From positions 1 through 17,937 of the forward strand of contig CAYWPR010000110.1 of the NCBI GenBank assembly GCA_964460115.1: 17,937 bases of DNA. The letters are read 5' to 3'. Numbering within the stretch: the first letter of the stretch is position 1; each line of letters opens with the position of its first letter. This document shows, in pieces, positions 2,513-10,568 of the stretch. Origin of the DNA: an uncultured Myxococcales bacterium. GTDB taxonomy: Bacteria > Myxococcota_A > Polyangia > Palsa-1104 > JAEUJZ01. The notes below the pieces were generated by a model. It did not search any database. It was not told the origin of the DNA and worked only from the letters and a program-made list of their open reading frames with translations. Position numbers and translations under genes: made by a program.

Positions 2513-3373
2513 ATGAAAGCCTCGACAAGGTTCGCGCCAGCTGACATGCAGAAAACAGGCAGTTGCACCTATGTTTTTTGCGTCACCAAGGGGCAAGCGC
2601 AAGCACCGGCAGGCAGTGGTTTTGCGCCCGACAGCCCGCTGGAATATGTGGTTGCGGAAGATTTGGCAGCGCTGACCTGCCGCGTTTCGCTTGACGAGTG
2701 GACGGGAAAAGACGCCGAAGCGCGGCTTGGCGATTTGCAATGGCTGGGACCACGGGCCGTGCAGCACGAGGCGGTCATTGAAGCAGCGCTGGCGCTGGCG
2801 CCGGTTTTGCCGCTGCGCTTTGGCTGTTTGTTTTCGTCTGCCGCCGCCGTGCAGAACTGGCTTTTGATCTGGCGTGATCAAATTGCCGATTTTCTCAACG
2901 ATATCGCCGACCGCGAAGAGTGGTCGCTAAAAGGCTTTTTGGATGTGCCGCGAGCGGAAGCGGCGCTTTTGGCCAAGGATCCGCGCTTTTCTGCGCTACC
3001 GGCTTCGCCAGGTGCGCGGTATCTGCGCGAACAAAAGCTGCGTCAGGAAATTGCTCGCTCGGTGCGCGTATGGGCCCGCGAGCACGAGCAAGCGGCGCTC
3101 GACGCGCTTTCGGCGCTGGTTCAAAAATCGCGTTCTTTGCGCGCCATCAGCGGCGAACTTTCTGGTCGCAGCGAAGAAGCCGTGTTTCATCGGGCGCTGC
3201 TTGTGCCGCGCCCCTGCCACGCCGAACTTTTGCAGCACATTGAGCCGCTGCAAAAAAACCTGGCAGGGCAGGGACTGCTGCTGGAACTTTCCGGACCCTG
3301 GCCGCCGTACAATTTCTGTCCGACGCTTGCGCCTTCTGCACCTGCGCAAACGCTCGGCAAAAGTGACGCCTAA
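2513..3373 (+). CDS. gvpF: Gas vesicle protein GvpL/GvpF family (paralog 1)
   Basis: N-terminus TYVFCVT...LEYVVAEDLAALTCRVSLDEW, central VLPLRFGCLF and C-terminal LSGPWPPYNF match GvpL/GvpF family hallmarks (YxYGV, LAAVVS-like, LPMRFG, GPWPPYSF). An alternative start at ATG 2546 (MQKTGSCTYVF) is equally plausible. Confidence 0.8.
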   Translation: MKASTRFAPADMQKTGSCTYVFCVTKGQAQAPAGSGFAPDSPLEYVVAEDLAALTCRVSLDEWTGKDAEARLGDLQWLGPRAVQHEAVIEAALALAPVLPLRFGCLFSSAAAVQNWLLIWRDQIADFLNDIADREEWSLKGFLDVPRAEAALLAKDPRFSALPASPGARYLREQKLRQEIARSVRVWAREHEQAALDALSALVQKSRSLRAISGELSGRSEEAVFHRALLVPRPCHAELLQHIEPLQKNLAGQGLLLELSGPWPPYNFCPTLAPSAPAQTLGKSDA

Positions 3374-3391
3374 GCGGCTGCTTGGCGAAAC

Positions 3392-4153
3392 ATGACAAAG
3401 CCCGCTTTTGACCACTGGCTGCTTTGCTGTGTGACTTCCGCTGCGGTCTGCGCCGATGGCGCCGAACTGGCCGATTTGCCGCCCGGGGCTTTTGGCGTAC
3501 GCTGCCGCGGTTTGGCGGCCGGGCCCTTGTTTGGCGTTGCGGCACCGCTTTGTGGCGCTCGGCAAATTGCGCAGCCAACGGCAGAAGATTTGCTCGCCTA
3601 CAGCCGAGTCGTAGACCTTGTGCATGCGCGACATACTGCCGTTCCCATCCGTTACGGCAGTACGTTTGGCAGCGATGCGGCAATTCGTACCTATCTTCAT
3701 GAAAACGCCGCACATTACGAGCGTCTGCTTCAGCAGTTTGTCGACCGAGTCGAAGTCGCCGTACGCACCGCATTTTCTGCCGAGATCGCGCAATCGCTGC
3801 CGTCCCTCGAAAATTCCGCTCCGCGAATTTCCGCCGGGAGCACAGGCACTGCCTATTTGCGTCGCCTGCAAGCGCAGCAGGAAAAAATGCGTGCTACAGC
3901 CGATGCGGCAGCCCGTCAAGGCGAACAGATTTACGCCGCCCTGGCACCGGGCGGATGCCCGCATCGAGTAGAAACGCGCACCGACAACCCCGGCGGAGTC
4001 ATTCGTGACATCGCCGTTAGCTTTTTGCTGAAACGCGACGCCGTGTCGGAATTTCGCCGCCGCGTGGAAGAACTGCAGCAAAAAGCGCAGCGCCCGCTGC
4101 GCTTTTTGGGACCGTTTGCGCCCTATAGCTTCGCCGAGCTTGCACCGCCCTAA
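3392..4153 (+). CDS. gvpL: Gas vesicle protein GvpL/GvpF family (paralog 2, more divergent)
   Basis: N-terminal WLLCCVTSA, then LLAYSRVVDL, VPIRYGSTF and C-terminal LGPFAPYSFAEL, the same family architecture as paralog 1. Calling it gvpL rather than gvpF is arbitrary. Confidence 0.75.
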   Translation: MTKPAFDHWLLCCVTSAAVCADGAELADLPPGAFGVRCRGLAAGPLFGVAAPLCGARQIAQPTAEDLLAYSRVVDLVHARHTAVPIRYGSTFGSDAAIRTYLHENAAHYERLLQQFVDRVEVAVRTAFSAEIAQSLPSLENSAPRISAGSTGTAYLRRLQAQQEKMRATADAAARQGEQIYAALAPGGCPHRVETRTDNPGGVIRDIAVSFLLKRDAVSEFRRRVEELQQKAQRPLRFLGPFAPYSFAELAPP

Positions 4154-4271
4154 TTCGAATAACGAAAACAGCCGTTCCTATTTAAAAGACGTTTTATTAT
4201 TGTAATGATAAATTCATTATTTCGCGATCCTGCATCAAGGCTGCGCATCGCGCTTGTTAAAGGCCAAAGCA
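4154..4271. promoter_or_regulatory. AT-rich island inside the gvp cluster, likely internal promoter/operator for gvpF3-arsA-gvpM
   Basis: A sharp GC drop (taattcgaataacgaaaacagccgttcctatttaaaagacgttttattattgtaatgataaattcattattt) in an otherwise >60% GC locus. It contains TTATTATT at 4194-4201 and a 5-bp inverted repeat AATGA-N5-TCATT at 4204-4218. AAAGG lies 9 nt before ATG 4272. Confidence 0.35.
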
Positions 4272-5027
4272 ATGACCCAAAGCAGCGAACAGTCGGGGGG
4301 CGAGTACATTTATGCGCTGGTCCAAAATGACGGACCGAAAACGCTTGGGGCCATCGGCATTGATGGCGCCGAGGTACGGCGAATTGCAGTCGGCGAGCTA
4401 GCGGTCTTCATCAGCCGCATTGCTCGGCCGCGCATTCGTCCCGAGCGGCGAAATTTGGCCGCGCACAACGCCGTGCTGAAACAAGCCATGGCAAGCGGCA
4501 CGGTTTTGCCCGTCGCCTTTGGCATCATCGCGCAGAACGAGGATGCCGTTCGCGTCGCACTTTTGACGAACCAGCTCGATTTGCAGGCGCAGTTTGCCAA
4601 AGTCGCCAATAAGGTCGAGATGGGTTTGCGGGTGCTGTGGGACGTGCCCAATGTTTTTGAGTATTTCGTCGGCGTGCATCCCGAACTGCGCGCCGCCCGC
4701 GATGCCCTTTCCGATCCGCGGCAGCCGCGCCGCGACGAAATGATCGAGCTTGGCCAACTATTCGATCGAATTCTGAATTTCGAGCGCGAGCGCCACTTCG
4801 AGCGCATTAGCGAGCTTTTCGAAAAGCGCGGTTTTGAGACGCTGCGCAATGCCACGCGCAGCGAACGTGAGGTGCTAAACCTCGCCTGCCTGATTTCGCG
4901 CGACGCGCAAACCGATTTCGAAAACGCCGTCACCGCCGCTGCCGCCGATTTCGACAACAACTACACATTTGATTTCAACGGGCCCTGGGCACCGCATCAC
5001 TTCGTGGCGCTGAACCTCAAACTGTAG
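4272..5027 (+). CDS. gvpF: Gas vesicle protein GvpL/GvpF family (paralog 3)
   Basis: Track ORF 4254 uses a TTG start; I prefer ATG 4272 (MTQSSEQSGGEYIYALV). GEYIYALV...GELAVFISRI...VLPVAFGII...NGPWAPHHFV are typical GvpF/L motifs. Confidence 0.8.
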   Translation: MTQSSEQSGGEYIYALVQNDGPKTLGAIGIDGAEVRRIAVGELAVFISRIARPRIRPERRNLAAHNAVLKQAMASGTVLPVAFGIIAQNEDAVRVALLTNQLDLQAQFAKVANKVEMGLRVLWDVPNVFEYFVGVHPELRAARDALSDPRQPRRDEMIELGQLFDRILNFERERHFERISELFEKRGFETLRNATRSEREVLNLACLISRDAQTDFENAVTAAAADFDNNYTFDFNGPWAPHHFVALNLKL

Positions 5028-5036
5028 TGGGGCGGC

Positions 5037-6995
5037 ATGGCGCATTTGCCGGCATTTCTCTTTCGCGAAGATTTGCAGCTCATCCTTTTTTCCGGCAAAG
5101 GCGGAGTCGGCAAGACGACCTGTGCGGTGGCCAGCGCGGTACATATGGCGCTCGGTGCGCCGAAGTTTCGCTTTCTGCTCGTCTCGGTGGATCCGGCGCA
5201 CTCGGTGCGCGATTGCCTCGGCGAAGATACGCCGCCGCAAAATCTCGACGTCATCGAGCTTGATGCACCGGCTTTGCTGCGTGAATTTCTGACCGCGCAC
5301 GAAGCCACCCTGCGCGAGATTGCTCGGCGCAGCACCTTTTTTGACGAGGCAGATATCGCGCATTTTGCTGCGCGTTCGCTTCCCGGAATGGACGAGCTGT
5401 TTGCCTTTTTGCGCATCGCCGAGTGGGTGCAAAAGGGGGCCTATCAAACGATTCTGGTCGATACAGCGCCAGCCGGTCATACCCGTCGGCTGCTTGAAAT
5501 GCCGCAGCTTTTGCGGGCCTGGACAAAAGCGTGTGACGGACTGCTTGCCAAGCATCGCTACATGGTGCAGCAGTTTCGCGGAGCCTATAAGTCCGATGCG
5601 ACCGATCAATTGCTTGTGGATTTGGCGCAATTTGCCAAGCAGGTCGATGCGCTGCTGCGTTCTGCGGCCAGCTTGGTGGTGCCGGTGCTTGTGCCAGAGC
5701 CGCTGTGCTTGGAAATCAGCCTGAACTTTGTGAATGAACTGCGCGCGCAGGGCATAAAGCTCGGGCCGCTTGTCATAAATCGGCTGCGCAACGCGGAAGG
5801 CTGTGCAAGCTGCGCGCTTGTGGCCCTGGCGCAAAAGCAAGCCTTGGCCGCGCGCCAAACTCAGCTTGCCGACGATGGCGGCGGCTGGGGCCTGCCGCTT
5901 TTGGCAAAAGAAGTGCGCGGTCTGGAACATTTGCGAAATTTTTGGCAGCAGGGCGAACCATATTCTTTCATCGCGCCGCCCGTAAGTACCAAGCTGCCGA
6001 ACTCGATCTCGAGCCCGCGTATCGATATCGAAATCGAAGTGCAAAATCCCGCGGCGCTGCCGCCCCAAACTCAGCGCGTGTTGCTTTTTGCCGGCAAGGG
6101 CGGCGTTGGCAAAACCACATTGGCCTGCGCCACGGCGCTGTTTCTGTCCGCGACCGCGCAGCGCTCGGTCCTGCTAATTTCGACCGACCCGGCGCATTCG
6201 CTGTCCGCGGCGCTGAACGTAGCCATCAGCGCAACCGACACAAGGCTGCCGACCTGGCCGCGGCTCACGGTTGTAGCGCCCGAGCCACAAGCAAAATGGC
6301 AAGCTTGGCGCGACGAATATGCCGACGAGATATCGGCTTTTTTTCGCAAACGCCTGGGCCACGTAGACTTGGCGTTTGATCGGCAGGCCCTGGAGCAACT
6401 GATGGATCTGACACCGCCCGGGCTCGACGAAATCGTCTCGCTGACTCGCGTTGGCGAATTGCTGGCGGAAAATAAGTACGAGCACATCGTGCTGGATACC
6501 GCGCCCACCGGCCACCTGCTGCGGCTTTTAGAGCTGCCGGCCGTGCTCGACGATTGGCTAAAGGGCATTTTCGCCATTCTATTGAAGCAGCAACCGGCGC
6601 TGCGCCTGCCGCGGCTTAGCGACCGTTTGATTGGGTTGTCCAAACAACTCAAGCGGCTGCGCAAAGTCCTTTGGGACGCGCAGCAAAGCAGCTTGTATGC
6701 GGTCAGCATCGCGACTTGTCTGGCGCATGAAGAGACGCTGGACCTTTTGCACGCTTGTCGCCGCTTGTCGCTGCATGTAGGCGGCGTATTTGTCAACCAG
6801 TGCACGCCCGTCGCGAATTGCAAACTGTGCACGGCGCTTTTTCAGCGCGAAACCCAGGTCAACACGGCGCTACAGCGCGAAGTGGCAAACGTGCCGCTGA
6901 CCTGTATCACAGCGGGCACGCCGCCCCTCGGCCTGGCGGCGCTTTTTGCGCTGGGGCAAAAACTATATACATTGGGAGACTCGCTTGGCCGCTGA
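5037..6995 (+). CDS. ArsA/Get3-family anion-transporting-type ATPase, tandem duplicated (two ArsA halves), embedded in gvp operon
   Basis: Both halves carry the deviant Walker A GKGGVGKTT (FSGKGGVGKTT at aa ~19 and FAGKGGVGKTT at aa ~355). Both carry the ArsA A-loop (VSVDPAHSV; ISTDPAHSL) and the ArsA/Get3-specific DTAP(A/T)GH..RLLE signature (DTAPAGHTRRLLEMP; DTAPTGHLLRLLELP). ATG 5037 lies 10 nt after the gvpF3 stop with GGGG upstream. Confidence 0.85.
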   Translation: MAHLPAFLFREDLQLILFSGKGGVGKTTCAVASAVHMALGAPKFRFLLVSVDPAHSVRDCLGEDTPPQNLDVIELDAPALLREFLTAHEATLREIARRSTFFDEADIAHFAARSLPGMDELFAFLRIAEWVQKGAYQTILVDTAPAGHTRRLLEMPQLLRAWTKACDGLLAKHRYMVQQFRGAYKSDATDQLLVDLAQFAKQVDALLRSAASLVVPVLVPEPLCLEISLNFVNELRAQGIKLGPLVINRLRNAEGCASCALVALAQKQALAARQTQLADDGGGWGLPLLAKEVRGLEHLRNFWQQGEPYSFIAPPVSTKLPNSISSPRIDIEIEVQNPAALPPQTQRVLLFAGKGGVGKTTLACATALFLSATAQRSVLLISTDPAHSLSAALNVAISATDTRLPTWPRLTVVAPEPQAKWQAWRDEYADEISAFFRKRLGHVDLAFDRQALEQLMDLTPPGLDEIVSLTRVGELLAENKYEHIVLDTAPTGHLLRLLELPAVLDDWLKGIFAILLKQQPALRLPRLSDRLIGLSKQLKRLRKVLWDAQQSSLYAVSIATCLAHEETLDLLHACRRLSLHVGGVFVNQCTPVANCKLCTALFQRETQVNTALQREVANVPLTCITAGTPPLGLAALFALGQKLYTLGDSLGR

Positions 6996-7086
6996 CGTAA
7001 CTGATCTCAGCTTGACCGATGATGGAAAAAGTCATGCCGTTTCGAATACGACGCGCCACGAAGCGACTCGAGACGAAGAAGAACGC

Positions 7087-7308
7087 ATGTCTTTGTGCGA
7101 ACTGCTCGATCGAGTTTTAAACAAAGGCGTGGTGGTTCGCGGCGAAGTGGTCATTACCGTCGCCGATATCGAGCTACTATATTTGGGTTTGGAACTTATT
7201 CTGTGTGCCACCGAGACGGCGCGCCAGGCCGGTGTGCGCCTGCCAAGCGATATGAACGCAGCGCGGTTTTTGCCCAATCCGCAGGTCGTCAAGGTTCCTT
7301 CGCGCTAA
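7087..7308 (+). CDS. gvpM: Small gas vesicle structural-family protein (GvpA/GvpJ/GvpM family; GvpM-like)
   Basis: MSLCELLDRVLNKGVVVRGEVVITVADIELLYLGLELILCATETARQ matches the GvpA-family core (SL.E.LDR.LDKGVV...V..IELL....R..IAS.ET). VVITVADIELL resembles the GvpM/J type rather than GvpA DAWVRVSLVGIELL. The track ORF starts at TTG 6946 inside arsA; I prefer ATG 7087. An in-frame TTG near 7010 is a possible longer alternative. Confidence 0.7.
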   Translation: MSLCELLDRVLNKGVVVRGEVVITVADIELLYLGLELILCATETARQAGVRLPSDMNAARFLPNPQVVKVPSR

Positions 7309-7714
7309 GGCGCTCTTCCATGCGGCGCAAGCTTGCCTCCATGGCTCGCAGCCGCGCTTCAACCGGATCTGCGGGCCGCGCGACTTCATCTGCTGCTGGC
7401 GCTGCAGCTTTCGCCGGCGCCGCCGCCGGCAGTTCGCTTTGCGGGACGCTTTGAGCAAGCTGATCTTCGACTTGGGCCAGCCGGGCCATCGTGGACCAAT
7501 GCGGGTCGGTTTTCCACCAGTCCATGCCCATGGCCATGGCGCGTTCGACCGAACAGACGACTAGACGAATCTGAATGGTCAAAAGCTCAATTTCGACGAG
7601 CTTTATTTTGATGTCGCCGGCGATGACGATGCCTTTGTCGAGCACTCGCTCTAAAATATCGGCCAGCGTCGAGCCACGCGTCGAGTTGGTAATCGTTGTG
7701 GGACGGTTAGTCAT
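7289..7714 (-). CDS. gvpJ: GvpJ-like gas vesicle protein (GvpA-family core plus C-terminal Ala/Pro-rich extension)
   Basis: MTNRPTTITNSTRGSTLADILERVLDKGIVIAGDIKIKLVEIELLTIQIRLVVCSVERAMAMGMDWW is a GvpA/J-family core. The following ~60-aa low-complexity tail is typical of GvpJ. The 3-prime end overlaps the convergent gvpM-like gene by 20 nt (7289-7308). Confidence 0.8.
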   Translation of the reverse strand: MTNRPTTITNSTRGSTLADILERVLDKGIVIAGDIKIKLVEIELLTIQIRLVVCSVERAMAMGMDWWKTDPHWSTMARLAQVEDQLAQSVPQSELPAAAPAKAAAPAADEVARPADPVEARLRAMEASLRRMEERLSAKEP

Positions 7715-7740: not shown

Positions 7741-8271
7741 CTATAGCAGTTTGCCAAGCGGCCCGAGATCCAGATTGAGGTCTTCTTCACGCAGGCCGAA
7801 GGCTTCGCGCAGGCGGTGTAGCTCTTCGGCTTGGCGCATTAGAGTCAGGCCGAGTTGTTCGATTTGTTCATCGCTTAAAGTTCCCGATTCGACGCGGCGC
7901 AGGGCCTGCTTTTCCAGCAAATCGTGCAGCAGTTTGACGAGCGTTAGCACCAATTGCCCCAGTCCATTTTTGACGCTGTCGGGATCGATATTGATGCGGC
8001 GCGACGGTCCTAATGCAGGCTCAGCCGGAGCGGTTTTTGCTGCCGCTGTTTTCGTCGACTTTTTTGCCGCTTTGGCCGAATTTGTCGGCTTTTTCGTCGA
8101 TTTCGCCGGTTTCGTCGTCAGCTTCGGCATCGACTTCGTCGGCTTCGTCGATTTCATCGTCGGCTTCGTCGATTTCATCGTCGGCTTCGTCGTCGATTTC
8201 GTCATGAGGCAGTTCTTCGTCATCCTCAACTGCCGCTTCTTCGTCCCCAGATGCGGCTTGCTCCAACTCAT
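7741..8271 (-). CDS. gvpK: Gas vesicle protein GvpK with Lys/Thr-rich repetitive N-terminal extension (start uncertain: ATG at 8271, 8223, 8205, 8178, 8157 or 8130)
   Basis: The C-terminal 86 aa are RINIDPDSVKNGLGQLVLTLVKLLHDLLEKQALRRVESGTLSDEQIEQLGLTLMRQAEELHRLREAFGLREEDLNLDLGPLGKLL, the conserved GvpK pattern. The only in-frame ATGs lie upstream of the gvpG stop (8021), so any ATG start overlaps gvpG in another frame. The maximal ORF adds 90 aa containing TKPTMKS repeats. Confidence 0.7.
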   Translation of the reverse strand: MSWSKPHLGTKKRQLRMTKNCLMTKSTTKPTMKSTKPTMKSTKPTKSMPKLTTKPAKSTKKPTNSAKAAKKSTKTAAAKTAPAEPALGPSRRINIDPDSVKNGLGQLVLTLVKLLHDLLEKQALRRVESGTLSDEQIEQLGLTLMRQAEELHRLREAFGLREEDLNLDLGPLGKLL

Positions 8272-8479
8272 CCAGCCGGTCTAGCAGCAGCTTTTCTTCA
8301 TGATCAAACTCTGACTCAGAGATCTGATTTGTCTCGAGCAGCATATAAAGTTCGCGCAAACGGTCTTTGATGCGGTCGGATTCTGCTGCTTGTTCTTCCT
8401 CTGCAGCTTGCGCGATTTCTTTCAAAATCCAGACCACGCCTTTGATGGGTGCGGTCAGTAGATCATCAAGAATAAACAT
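8021..8479 (-). CDS. gvpG: Gas vesicle protein GvpG with long poly-acidic repeat C-terminal tail
   Basis: MFILDDLLTAPIKGVVWILKEIAQAAEEEQAAESDRIKDRLRELYMLLETNQISESEFDHEEKLLLDRLDEL matches the GvpG family consensus (MF..DDLL..P..G..WI...I...AE...L.EL...LE.G.I.E.E....E..LL.RL). It is followed by a DEIDEAD-type acidic repeat tail (aa ~80-152) ending at the TGA at 8021-8023. Confidence 0.8.
   Translation of the reverse strand: MFILDDLLTAPIKGVVWILKEIAQAAEEEQAAESDRIKDRLRELYMLLETNQISESEFDHEEKLLLDRLDELEQAASGDEEAAVEDDEELPHDEIDDEADDEIDEADDEIDEADEVDAEADDETGEIDEKADKFGQSGKKVDENSGSKNRSG
8086..8210. repeat. Tandem 21-bp repeat (gtcggcttcgtcgatttcatc, about 3 clean copies at 8138-8203 plus degenerate copies 8086-8137)
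   Basis: Direct repeats read in the sequence; the unit length is a multiple of 3. On the minus strand the repeat encodes DEIDEAD in the gvpG frame and TKPTMKS in the gvpK frame. It also generates the plus-strand shadow ORFs 7751..8284 and 8013..8207. Confidence 0.85.
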
Positions 8480-8519
8480 GGACTTTCAGGCCGCGCCCCT
8501 TGGCCACGGGCTTTGCGCA

Positions 8520-8600
8520 GTGCAAGTGGGCGTATTTTCACAGGAAATATTATGTAAATAATAACACTAATAAATGGATTGGAAAAGTGCTGCCTGTCCT
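8520..8600 (-). promoter_or_regulatory. AT-rich island upstream of gvpG; candidate promoter for gvpG-gvpK-gvpJ
   Basis: Minus-sense sequence ttattagtgTTATTATTtacataatatttcctgtgaaaatacgcc contains TTTACA and, 17 nt later, an A/T-rich block. It shares the octamer TTATTATT with the 4154-4271 island. Assignment is by position and composition only. Confidence 0.3.
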
Positions 8601-8604
8601 GAAA

Positions 8605-8660
8605 AAGGACGCAGAAAGCCCCGTAAGCGTTTGCTCACGGGACTTTACGGGTAGGACTGC
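8605..8660 (-). terminator. Possible intrinsic terminator of the OmpA-family gene
   Basis: The minus-strand RNA would form CCCGT-gagcaaacgctt-ACGGG (or a 7-bp CCCGTAA/TTACGGG stem) followed by GCTTTCTGCGTCCTTTTTC. The U-rich run is interrupted, so this is weak. Confidence 0.3.
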
Positions 8661-8693
8661 GAAGGAAATTAAAAGCGGGAAGGAGTGAAAAGC

Positions 8694-10568
8694 TTACTCG
8701 CCCTGATTCGTGCGGGCGGTGCCTTCCACGATGCGGAACTCGACGCGGCGGTTTTTGGCGCGGCCGGCCGCGGTCGTATTGGGTGCGACCGGTTGATCCG
8801 GGCCAAAGCCCTGCGATTCTAGACGATCTGCTTCGATGCTGTGCGCGATGAGCCAAGTCATAACGCTGCGCGCTCGGCGCTGCGACAGATCGATATTGTA
8901 GATGTGCACACCCTGGCTGTCCGTATGTCCTTCGATGCGGACCCGCTTGATGTTGGGCGTAGCAATGAGCGCGTCGGCCACTGCCTGCAGGACCGGGTAG
9001 CTTTGCGCCAGAATGATGTCCTTATCGAGCGCAAAGAACACCGGCTTGAGGATCACCAGCTTGCCGCCATGAATCTGAACCAGACTTGGGCAGCCGTTCT
9101 TCCGCGGATTGGGATGCGGCGCACCTGGGGTATCCGGACAAGCGTCTACCTTATCGGGGACGGTGTCTTTGTCGCGGTCGGGCAGCGGGCAGCCAATGCG
9201 CTCCGGATCGGGGTGCAGTCCGGAAGGCTCAAAGACGCACTTATCAATGGTGTCTACGTAGCCATCCTTGTCACTGTCGAGAGCCGGACAGCCCAAGCGG
9301 TTCGGATCCGGGGTCGGGCCCATATGCTCATCCGGACACAGGTCCAGCTTGTCGGGTACGCCATCGCGATCGCGATCCGACTCGGGCGGCTGCGGACAGC
9401 CACGGCGCAGCGGATCGGGCGTCGGGCCCATATGCTCGTCGGGGCAGACGTCATCTTGATCGGGCACGCCGTCGCGATCGCGGTCGGCCACTGGCGGACA
9501 GCCGTGGGTGCTGGGAACACCAGTGCGAATGCCGCGTACATCCGGACAAGCATCTTCGCCGTCAGGAATGCCGTCGCCATCGCGATCCGTTTCCTTGGCG
9601 CGCACCGGAGCATAGGCCACGCGCAGCAGCCAGCGGAAGTCAGGATTGCCCGCCTGACGGACAAAGCCAGTGCCAAAGGCCATACCGACCTGAACAAGCT
9701 TGGCGATGTTGTACTGACCGCCGACCAAAGCCGATACGCTGGTGCCAAAGCGCGAAAACGCATCGCGGCCCAGCACCTGGCCAGAGATCATTAATTCCGG
9801 GCCGACCGAGAAGCGTTTCTCTTGATCGAAGTAGGAAGCGGCCAGCGAGAACTGAATTTCCGAACCTACGCCACCCGGGTCGCCAGCATCCGCTGGAACC
9901 ATGGCCGTCGCTTCGGGACGGTAATAGAACCCAAAAGTTCCCGACCACAGCAGCTTGCGCCACACACCGCCCGCGACGAGTCGTGGCAGTATACGCACGC
10001 CCGTGTCGCTGTACGAAGGGGGCACGGCGTTGGGATCACCGGCGCGCAGCGGAATCCATAGATTTAAGCCGAAGCTGATGGACAAAATGTCCTGAAACGG
10101 CTGATTGTAAAGGCGGACCATGGCGCCTAGACGCGGATCGCCAACCGATGCGCCGCTCGAGACCGAGGGCTCGCCCTGGCTCAGAAAGACCACCGGAAGC
10201 GAGGCGGTCAATAGGACACGGTCTAAAAACGACCCGGCCAAATCCAGGTGGCCGATGAACTGATGCTCAATCAGCACGCGTCTTTGAGAAAAAGACCCGT
10301 CGGAGTTTAACGATCCGGCAACAAGCGGCTGGTGCGCATAATCTAGAGTCAGACCAGCGGCAAAATATCGCACCGAGGAGTACCACGGGTGGTCGACCGC
10401 GAAAGACCATTCACCGGCGGCCGTCGGTTCATAGCGGTTAAGTTGGAACCCCTGCGTGGGCGCTTGCTGGGCAAAAGCTGTGCCGCCCACAGACATCGCA
10501 CCCAAAAACAGGGAGAGAATGGAACATCGGAACGAGGATCGCAAAGTCACCCTCCAGTACAGAATCAA
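8694..10568 (-). CDS. OmpA-family outer-membrane protein with thrombospondin type-3 (TSP3) Ca-binding repeats and C-terminal OmpA peptidoglycan-binding domain
   Basis: Signal peptide MILYWRVTLRSSFRCSILSLFLGAMSVGGTAFAQQ, then an N-terminal beta-rich region. Multiple D.DRDG.PD..D.CPD TSP3 repeats follow (ETDRDGDGIPDGEDACPD, ADRDRDGVPDQDDVCPDEHMGPTPDP, SDRDRDGVPDKLDLCPDEHMGPTPDP, DSDKDGYVDTIDKC, DRDKDTVPDKVDACPD). The C-terminus has the OmpA-like motifs IEGHTDSQG...NIDLSQRRARSV...RRVEF. Confidence 0.8.
   Translation of the reverse strand: MILYWRVTLRSSFRCSILSLFLGAMSVGGTAFAQQAPTQGFQLNRYEPTAAGEWSFAVDHPWYSSVRYFAAGLTLDYAHQPLVAGSLNSDGSFSQRRVLIEHQFIGHLDLAGSFLDRVLLTASLPVVFLSQGEPSVSSGASVGDPRLGAMVRLYNQPFQDILSISFGLNLWIPLRAGDPNAVPPSYSDTGVRILPRLVAGGVWRKLLWSGTFGFYYRPEATAMVPADAGDPGGVGSEIQFSLAASYFDQEKRFSVGPELMISGQVLGRDAFSRFGTSVSALVGGQYNIAKLVQVGMAFGTGFVRQAGNPDFRWLLRVAYAPVRAKETDRDGDGIPDGEDACPDVRGIRTGVPSTHGCPPVADRDRDGVPDQDDVCPDEHMGPTPDPLRRGCPQPPESDRDRDGVPDKLDLCPDEHMGPTPDPNRLGCPALDSDKDGYVDTIDKCVFEPSGLHPDPERIGCPLPDRDKDTVPDKVDACPDTPGAPHPNPRKNGCPSLVQIHGGKLVILKPVFFALDKDIILAQSYPVLQAVADALIATPNIKRVRIEGHTDSQGVHIYNIDLSQRRARSVMTWLIAHSIEADRLESQGFGPDQPVAPNTTAAGRAKNRRVEFRIVEGTARTNQGE
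9100..9590. repeat. TSP3-repeat-encoding DNA, including a ~107-bp near-identical direct duplication (gggcccatatgctc... at ~9317 and ~9424)
   Basis: Repeated nucleotide blocks visible directly in the sequence. They account for the long spurious plus-strand ORFs 8841..9794 and 9086..10078. Confidence 0.6.

Follow-up and report, generated by a model that had tools for sequence, protein, structure and literature searches.

Introduction

GvpG and GvpK of B. megaterium bind each other directly, and the gvpK ORF of this organism overlaps the upstream gvpS gene. Moving the gvpK start codon there removes the overlap without loss of function, and most terminal fusions to GvpK leave gas-vesicle assembly undisturbed (PMC11445434). 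Overlaps between genes of the same strand have been modelled as arising by the loss of the start codon of the downstream gene and its replacement by a start further upstream (Fonseca, Harris and Posada 2013, PMC3887535). In a survey of 715 cases, Palleja et al. (2008) found no genuine co-directional overlap of more than 60 bp, the longest real one being 56 bp (PMC2478687).

The locus described here lies in a 17,937-nt stretch of DNA (the window) from an uncultured Myxococcales bacterium (contig CAYWPR010000110.1), which contains a gas-vesicle cluster with gvpG directly followed by gvpK. A first-pass annotation had proposed that a 21-bp tandem repeat at this junction is read in two frames, as the end of gvpG and as the beginning of gvpK. 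In the present study, the junction was compared with its orthologues, and the coding signal of both frames and the possible starts of gvpK were analysed.

Materials and Methods

The junction set comprised 11 loci with gvpG directly 5' of gvpK (L001-L003 and L025-L032), all of which were processed with one script. Loci L004, L017 and L018 were left out of the junction comparison because their gene order differs, no gvpG being directly upstream of gvpK. For resampling, the GvpG protein was kept fixed and synonymous codons were redrawn with the codon usage of the window itself. The codon-frame likelihood was trained on 4187 codons of the Pfam-supported genes of the window; over segments of 36 codons, true frames scored a mean of +0.33 (sd 0.16) and off-frames a mean of -0.43 (sd 0.2). 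The coordinates of all features are given in Table 1.

Table 1. Features of the gas-vesicle locus and their positions in the window
Feature	Position	Strand	Remarks
GvpL/F genes (n=3)	2513-5027	+	Gas-vesicle cluster, Pfam
ArsA-type double ATPase gene	5037-6995		Gas-vesicle cluster, Pfam
GvpA/J-family gene	end at 7308		Convergent with gvpG-gvpK-gvpJ
gvpG-gvpK-gvpJ unit	8479-7289	-	Convergent to the GvpL/F, ArsA and GvpA/J genes
GvpA/J-family gene 3' of gvpK (gvpJ)	7289..7714	-	Pfam Gas_vesicle PF00741, E 7.5e-17
Maximal gvpK ORF, 176 aa from the first ATG	7741..8271	-	Frame +1 relative to gvpG
GvpK domain, helical hairpin	7744..7998	-	Pfam PF05121, aa 92-176 of the maximal ORF
gvpG CDS, 152 aa	8021..8479	-	TGA stop 8023-8021; Pfam PF05120
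GvpG acidic C-terminal tail, aa 72-152	8024..8266	-	Translation
Minimal gvpG/gvpK overlap, 110 nt	8021..8130	-	gvpG reads DAEADDETGEIDEKADKFGQSGKKVDENSGSKNRSG and the stop; gvpK reads MPKLTTKPAKSTKKPTNSAKAAKKSTKTAAAKTAPA
gvpK-frame ACG (Thr)	8053..8055	-	Within gvpG GAC 8056-8054 followed by G
Candidate gvpK start ATG	8128..8130	-	ATG closest to the domain, hosted in gvpG codons GAT-GCC
Perfect 21-bp tandem repeat, 2.7 copies	8136-8192	-	TRF, 100% matches, score 114
Sigma-70-like promoter match	8558..8585	-	5' of gvpG; TTTCCA, 16 nt, TATTAT, with TG; consensus match only

Results

The gas-vesicle cluster and the acidic tail of GvpG

All the other gvp genes around gvpK were found intact by Pfam analysis, and Shine-Dalgarno matches are weak or absent in the gvp genes of the window in general. 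The promoter scan yielded no sigma-70-like match within gvpG, the sole match lying 5' of that gene, and the Rfam search gave 0 matches in the whole window.

GvpG was assigned to PF05120 by a match at aa 7-71 (E 2e-15; 57.1 bits against a gathering cut-off of 30.6), and this domain is 77-82% identical to that of its closest homologues. The tail that follows has 81 residues, of which 37 are Asp or Glu, and a net charge of -31. The tails of 54 GvpG homologues had medians of 44 aa in length and -22 in net charge, D/E-rich tails being present in the close homologues as well. Of the 11 orthologues at the compared junctions, nine have a long acidic tail and two (L002 and L003) a short one. These comparisons indicate that the acidic tail in the gvpG frame is a conserved feature of the clade.

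According to the first-pass annotation, gvpG stays open through the repeat and ends only at 8021, and the repeat yields DEIDEAD when read in frame with gvpG and TKPTMKS when read in the +1 (gvpK) frame. Both points were borne out, the former by the ORF (8479..8021, minus strand) and the latter by TRF and the translations. It is also true that a unit of seven codons preserves both frames, but so does any period divisible by three. Tandem arrays were found in the acidic tails of orthologues too, with a 21-bp period in L001 (4.4 copies) and a 12-bp period in L029 (5.5 copies). The GvpG tail may grow by in-frame tandem duplication, of which the 21-bp repeat would be the latest event.

The gvpK frame and its possible starts

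GvpK was assigned to PF05121 over profile positions 1-85 of 85 (E 1.5e-32; 111.9 bits against a cut-off of 25). It contains the invariant motifs NGLGQLVLT and DLNLDLGPLG, the first of which is unchanged in 27 aligned sequences. The gvpK frame is open from 8280, the upstream in-frame stop being TAG at 8283. Six ATG codons occur in this frame, at 8271, 8223, 8205, 8178, 8157 and 8130, exactly as first listed; all are upstream of the gvpG stop, and those at 8178 and 8157 each sit in a copy of the repeat. The other start-like codons 5' of the domain are TTG 8229, CTG 8250 and CTG 8121. No ATG, GTG or TTG was found in the gvpK frame between ATG 8130 and the domain start at 7998, and reading of the sequence from 8121 to 7998 revealed none of the three in any frame. 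Within the domain, the gvpK frame offers ATC 7995, ATC 7989, CTG 7962, TTG 7953 and GTG 7950, the last two being the next canonical starts.

Both frames are open across the junction, and no canonical gvpK start removes the overlap, the nearest being ATG 8130. The earlier statement that gvpK must overlap gvpG was upheld for canonical starts, which give overlaps of 110-251 nt.

The two canonical starts inside the domain, TTG 7953 and GTG 7950, are both preceded by a GGGG motif, and a truncated GvpK might be made from them. Such a protein would lose the invariant residues N55-Q59 and the first ten residues of helix 1. The segment RINIDPDSVKNGLGQL, upstream of this TTG and GTG, matches the family consensus and begins helix 1 in the AlphaFold2 model. 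Since it is consensus-like and carries the invariant NGLGQLVLT, it must be translated, and 7953 and 7950 are therefore excluded as starts; both were rejected as candidates on the ground that the invariant NGLGQ motif would be removed. Alternatively, a GvpG-GvpK fusion could be produced by +1 ribosomal frameshifting in the overlap, given that the gvpK frame is +1 to gvpG and open across the tail. However, the stop has no prfB-like shift site (context UCC GGC UGA G), the two genes are separate in the orthologues, with a +2 phase in L001 and L026 and a gap in L025, and the two proteins of B. megaterium are distinct and interact with each other (PMC11445434). Taken together, a fusion or a truncated GvpK is most unlikely. 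Programmed +1 frameshifting of the prfB type was rejected as a candidate, as there is neither +1 re-pairing nor a Shine-Dalgarno match and the phase varies among the orthologues.

Comparison of orthologous junctions

The closest relatives were MAGs labelled Myxococcales, Nannocystaceae and Polyangia. The best domain identity was 82% in the protein searches with GvpK and GvpG, and the best identity was 85% in the genome-contig scan, from a Myxococcales MAG, and 80% in the metagenome-contig scan. No near-identical sequence or second copy of the locus was detected in these protein, genome-contig and metagenome-contig searches. The order gvpG-gvpK-gvpJ also occurs in L025-L029, L031 and L032.

A gvpK ATG is present at the junction in all 11 orthologues, with GvpK proteins of 93-120 aa. 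The overlap between gvpG and gvpK is 4 nt in two of them (L001 and L026), 8-11 nt in five (L002, L003 and L027-L029) and 17-20 nt in three (L030-L032), and in L025 the called gvpK start lies 19 nt past the gvpG stop. Because every one of these syntenic orthologues needs an overlap of at most 20 nt or has a gap, the overlap of at least 110 nt that a canonical start requires in the window is unusual. The phase of gvpK relative to gvpG is +1 in nine of the 11 junctions and +2 in the other two (L001 and L026). In five orthologues (L003, L027, L028, L029 and L032), and likewise in the window, exactly 22 nt separate the gvpG stop from the GvpK domain. This shared spacing suggests that the 3' end of gvpG is ancestral and that the gvpK start is therefore what changed.

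L002, L003, L026 and L031 keep the acidic tail of GvpG but have a gvpK frame that closes a few codons ahead of the gvpK start. With L001, this makes five junctions that retain the tail although the gvpK frame closes, or begins, only just ahead of the junction, which is the condition that the first-pass annotation had set for a refutation. The overlap is thus not conserved among the 11 syntenic junctions, and the idea of conserved dual coding had to be given up. In six others (L025, L027, L028, L029, L030 and L032) the gvpK frame runs back into the tail for 200-400 nt without a stop and has ATGs far upstream, as in the window; L001, with an open stretch of about 160 nt, brings the long open frame to seven of the 11. 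A long open second frame thus exists in orthologues in which it is demonstrably unneeded.

The tblastn matches that reach query residues 32-63, from Nonomuraea and Bacillales loci, revealed no basic head on inspection. The in-frame sequence upstream in the Bacillales loci is not a basic head, and the Nonomuraea frame, as read, closes after 20 codons.

Origin of the open second frame

Asp and Glu codons (GAN), when shifted by one base, are read as ANG (AAG, ACG, AGG or ATG) and never as a stop. GAT followed by G yields ATG in the +1 frame, in which the residues read Lys, Thr, Arg and Met. Upon resampling, no stop interrupted the +1 frame over 8271-8021 in 45% of trials; for the shorter span 8130-8021 the figure was 81%. 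An ATG was present in this frame in more than 98% of trials, and the +2 frame was free of stops in about 0%. That the second frame is open does not exceed the chance expectation. The presence of an open, ATG-bearing +1 frame can be attributed to the construction of the tail from acidic GAN codons, and the second open frame across the repeat would accordingly be a side-effect of these codons and not a conserved dual code. The same effect was observed in a Haloarcula locus (L016), whose frame 5' of gvpK remains open over about 140 codons and is Arg/Thr-rich when read.

The codon-frame score over 8271-8131 was +0.60 for the gvpG frame and -0.37 for the gvpK frame. Over 8130-8024 the gvpG frame was gene-like (+0.28) and the gvpK frame off-frame-like (-0.29). 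The DNA of the overlap carries the gvpG signature only, and the gvpK-frame codon statistics gave no sign of selection on the gvpK head. Since the gvpK frame is off-frame-like, a gvpK head, if translated, must be young or unconstrained; a young overprinted head would be expected to score in this way, and the score is compatible with translation.

The gvpK gene might start at one of the five more distant ATGs (8157, 8178, 8205, 8223 or 8271), in which case the repeat would be read twice, in the acidic GvpG tail and in a basic GvpK head of 52-90 aa. In favour of this, all five lie in the gvpK frame, which has no stop from 8280 onwards, two of them are within repeat copies, and GAGG motifs occur near 8223 and 8205. 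However, the spacing of these motifs is poor (about 0 and about 17 nt), and the heads of the 138-176-aa proteins so produced would reach or exceed the maximum of 58 aa among 112 homologues; those from 8205-8271, with 68-90 aa, lie outside the homologue range altogether. The off-frame score of the gvpK frame over 8271-8131, the 45% of resampling trials in which the same openness arises and the presence of the same open frame and ATGs in orthologues whose gvpK begins at the junction further count against a distant start, which was judged unlikely.

With a start at ATG 8130, by comparison, the repeat at 8136-8192 would be upstream of gvpK and therefore read in the gvpG frame alone. Dual-frame use of the repeat itself was thus not supported, the +1 openness being a by-product of GAN codons in a frame that scores as off-frame; most likely it is an illusion created by codon composition. 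In short, what had first been read from the DNA was correct in every particular, and the need of a canonical gvpK start for an overlap of 110 nt or more stood; the dual coding of the repeat was not supported.

Probable loss of the proximal gvpK start

In nine of the 11 orthologous junctions, the gvpK ATG is hosted by a GAT (Asp) or CAT (His) codon of the gvpG frame with a G after it, and in the other two it is part of ATGA. In gvpG of the window, the last GAT followed by G occurs at 8131 (GAT-GCC) and supplies ATG 8130. All five Asp codons beyond it, the last in gvpG (8119, 8116, 8098, 8086 and 8056), are GAC, and the gvpK frame reads ACG or ACA (Thr) at these sites; the window therefore has no proximal gvpK ATG. 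A C-to-T change at 8054, synonymous in gvpG, would yield ATG 8055 and an overlap of 35 nt. GC3 in this genome is 66%, the bias running toward GAC. The start of gvpK thus depends on a synonymous site of gvpG.

These observations point to the following course of events. In the relatives, gvpK starts at a GAT-G or an ATGA located 4-20 nt from the gvpG stop, an arrangement that would couple both genes. In the window, gvpK would have lost this usual start in an otherwise ordinary gvpG-gvpK-gvpJ operon of the Myxococcota type, and initiation would then have shifted to ATG 8130, the closest in-frame ATG on the 5' side.

The missing start could also mean that gvpK is not properly expressed, by a recent start loss that leaves an incipient pseudogene, or that a base-call or assembly substitution hides a proximal start. 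Four gvpK-frame ACG codons (8118, 8115, 8097 and 8055) are one C-to-T change from ATG, the sequence is known from a single copy in the collections searched, and a survey ascribed nearly all long co-directional overlaps to errors (PMC2478687). Against this, the GvpK domain is intact and near the consensus, also in the residues that precede the internal TTG and GTG, the neighbouring gvp genes are all intact, and in-frame ATGs are available upstream. Nor can a single indel restore a proximal start, since no start codon occurs in any frame between 8121 and 7998; rescue by correction of an indel error was rejected for this reason. Non-expression or a sequence error was therefore considered improbable.

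Re-initiation, by ribosomes that have terminated at the gvpG stop, at a near-cognate codon close to the ancestral site, such as ACG 8055 or AUC 7995, would yield a GvpK of the usual short kind that overlaps gvpG little or not at all. The ancestral 22-nt spacing retained by the gvpG stop would agree with it, as would short-range termination-reinitiation coupling, which is reported to be common in such gene pairs (PMC10666635). Moreover, ACG 8055 is one transition from ATG, and AUC 7995 has the least structured context among the candidates. However, no convincing Shine-Dalgarno match was found upstream of either codon, and a start at 7995 would give an N-terminus shorter than in any homologue. 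The very low initiation efficiency of ACG and AUC in bacteria is a further argument against such a start, which is quite improbable.

The probable start at ATG 8130 and its predicted product

From the comparison of sequences, we infer that gvpK on balance probably now starts at ATG 8130 after losing its junction start, a lineage-specific shift that would have produced the 110-nt overlap and a GvpK of 129 aa. The Shine-Dalgarno pairing energies revealed no usable match at any candidate ATG, including 8130, and local mRNA folding no unusually open context at the candidate ATGs, so that neither ranked the starts. The candidate start at 8130 is preferred on grounds of parsimony and length. The N-terminal heads of 112 GvpK homologues measure 11-58 aa (median 39), with net charges of -5 to +4. 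The head of 43 aa predicted from 8130 is within this range of lengths; it is rich in Lys, Thr, Ala and Pro, and its net charge of +9 is outside the range of the homologues. Against this start, initiation inside a gene under translation is expected to be inefficient.

In the AlphaFold2 model, pLDDT is below 50 for residues 1-41 and about 90 over the helical hairpin. By analogy with the tolerance of B. megaterium GvpK to fusions, a disordered extra head would plausibly be tolerable. The head seems to be tolerated rather than selected.

Discussion

The gvpG/gvpK junction of the window appears to be a lineage-specific arrangement that is not conserved, and a known kind of event, fitting the published model of start loss and upstream replacement (PMC3887535). 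If GvpK starts at 8130 or upstream of it, the junction would be a rare documented case of a bacterial co-directional overlap of more than 100 nt with a clear origin. A silent change of GAT to GAC in gvpG can erase the start of gvpK, whereupon the acidic tract would offer a stop-free path and ATGs upstream. The locus may thus serve as a worked example of the neutral origin of overprinting.

The gene finder Prodigal limits same-strand overlaps to 60 bp. Given this limit, a gvpK called by programs with such a cap would be cut short within its conserved domain.

The predicted head is encoded in the +1 frame of the DNA for the acidic tail and is therefore opposite in charge to that tail. Since GvpG and GvpK bind each other directly in B. 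megaterium (PMC11445434), one may imagine that the basic GvpK head (+9 to +22, depending on the start) serves as an electrostatic clasp for the GvpG tail (-31), strengthening or tuning the GvpG-GvpK complex; this is a very improbable, speculative reading. If it were true, the copy number of the repeat would alter both partners together, and out-of-frame reading of acidic tracts would offer a general way of obtaining basic partners that match them. What is known of gas-vesicle assembly is unchanged unless the basic head is functional.

Compared with the Myxococcota/Polyangia junctions (L001-L003 and L025-L032), the window has the same gvpG-gvpK-gvpJ unit convergent with gvpA/J-family and ArsA-like ATPase genes, and the same acidic GvpG tails with tandem repeats. 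Unlike these junctions, it has no proximal ATG and would need an overlap of 110 nt or more together with a basic head, whereas their heads are non-basic. In B. megaterium gvpK likewise overlaps its upstream neighbour, but the partner there is gvpS and no acidic/basic repeat is involved. The proposed 110-nt overlap is longer than any co-directional overlap accepted by Palleja et al. (2008; PMC2478687). Finally, what the window would add to the model of Fonseca, Harris and Posada (PMC3887535) is that here the stop-free path and the spare ATGs are systematically supplied by the GAN composition of the acidic tail.

Convergent Ends of the GvpA/J-Family Genes

The two convergent GvpA/J-family genes of the window share 20 nt at their 3' ends (positions 7289-7308). 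The genes as called overlap in the same manner by 17 nt in L026-L029 and by 86-137 nt in L025 and L031, all among the syntenic gvpG-gvpK orthologues, and the convergent 3' overlap looks like a conserved trait of this type of cluster.

The plus-strand GvpA/J-family gene (6946-7308) has an ambiguous start. Its longest ORF begins with TTG at 6946 and overlaps the end of the adjoining ArsA-type ATPase gene by 50 nt (6946-6995), and the first ATG, at approximately 7087, lies directly 5' of the Gas_vesicle domain. Orthologues, as called, encode 114-121 amino acids and have a 17-nt overlap. The ArsA-type ATPase gene lies within the gas-vesicle cluster, and such a neighbor was also found in L025-L028, L031, and L004, a locus of different gene order.

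Features in and around the gvpG-gvpK-gvpJ unit
Feature	Position	Strand	Remarks
ArsA-type double P-loop ATPase, 652 aa	5037-6995	+	Pfam ArsA_ATPase, E 1e-91
GvpA/J-family ORF	ends 7308	+	3' end overlaps minus-strand gvpJ-like gene
gvpJ-like gene	7714..7289	-	convergent partner of plus-strand GvpA/J-family ORF
OmpA-family protein gene, 624 aa	10568..8694	-	thrombospondin type 3 and Excalibur-like calcium-binding repeats
Tandem repeat, 108-bp unit, 1.8 copies, 80% identical	9303-9497		inside OmpA-family ORF (-)

Region Upstream of gvpG

The OmpA-family gene is located directly upstream of the gvpG promoter region, and the intergenic stretch between it and gvpG (8480-8693) is AT-rich. Promoter-like matches were detected on both strands of this stretch at 8535-8585, and it is probably the regulatory region for the gvpG-gvpK-gvpJ unit.

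Open Frame Upstream of gvpK in Haloarcula

In L016 (Haloarcula amylovorans; 3575-4000), the gvpK frame is open for approximately 140 codons upstream of the gvpK ATG, with a basic, Arg/Thr/Pro-rich reading. This frame is similar in form to the by-product in the acidic GvpG tail of the window.
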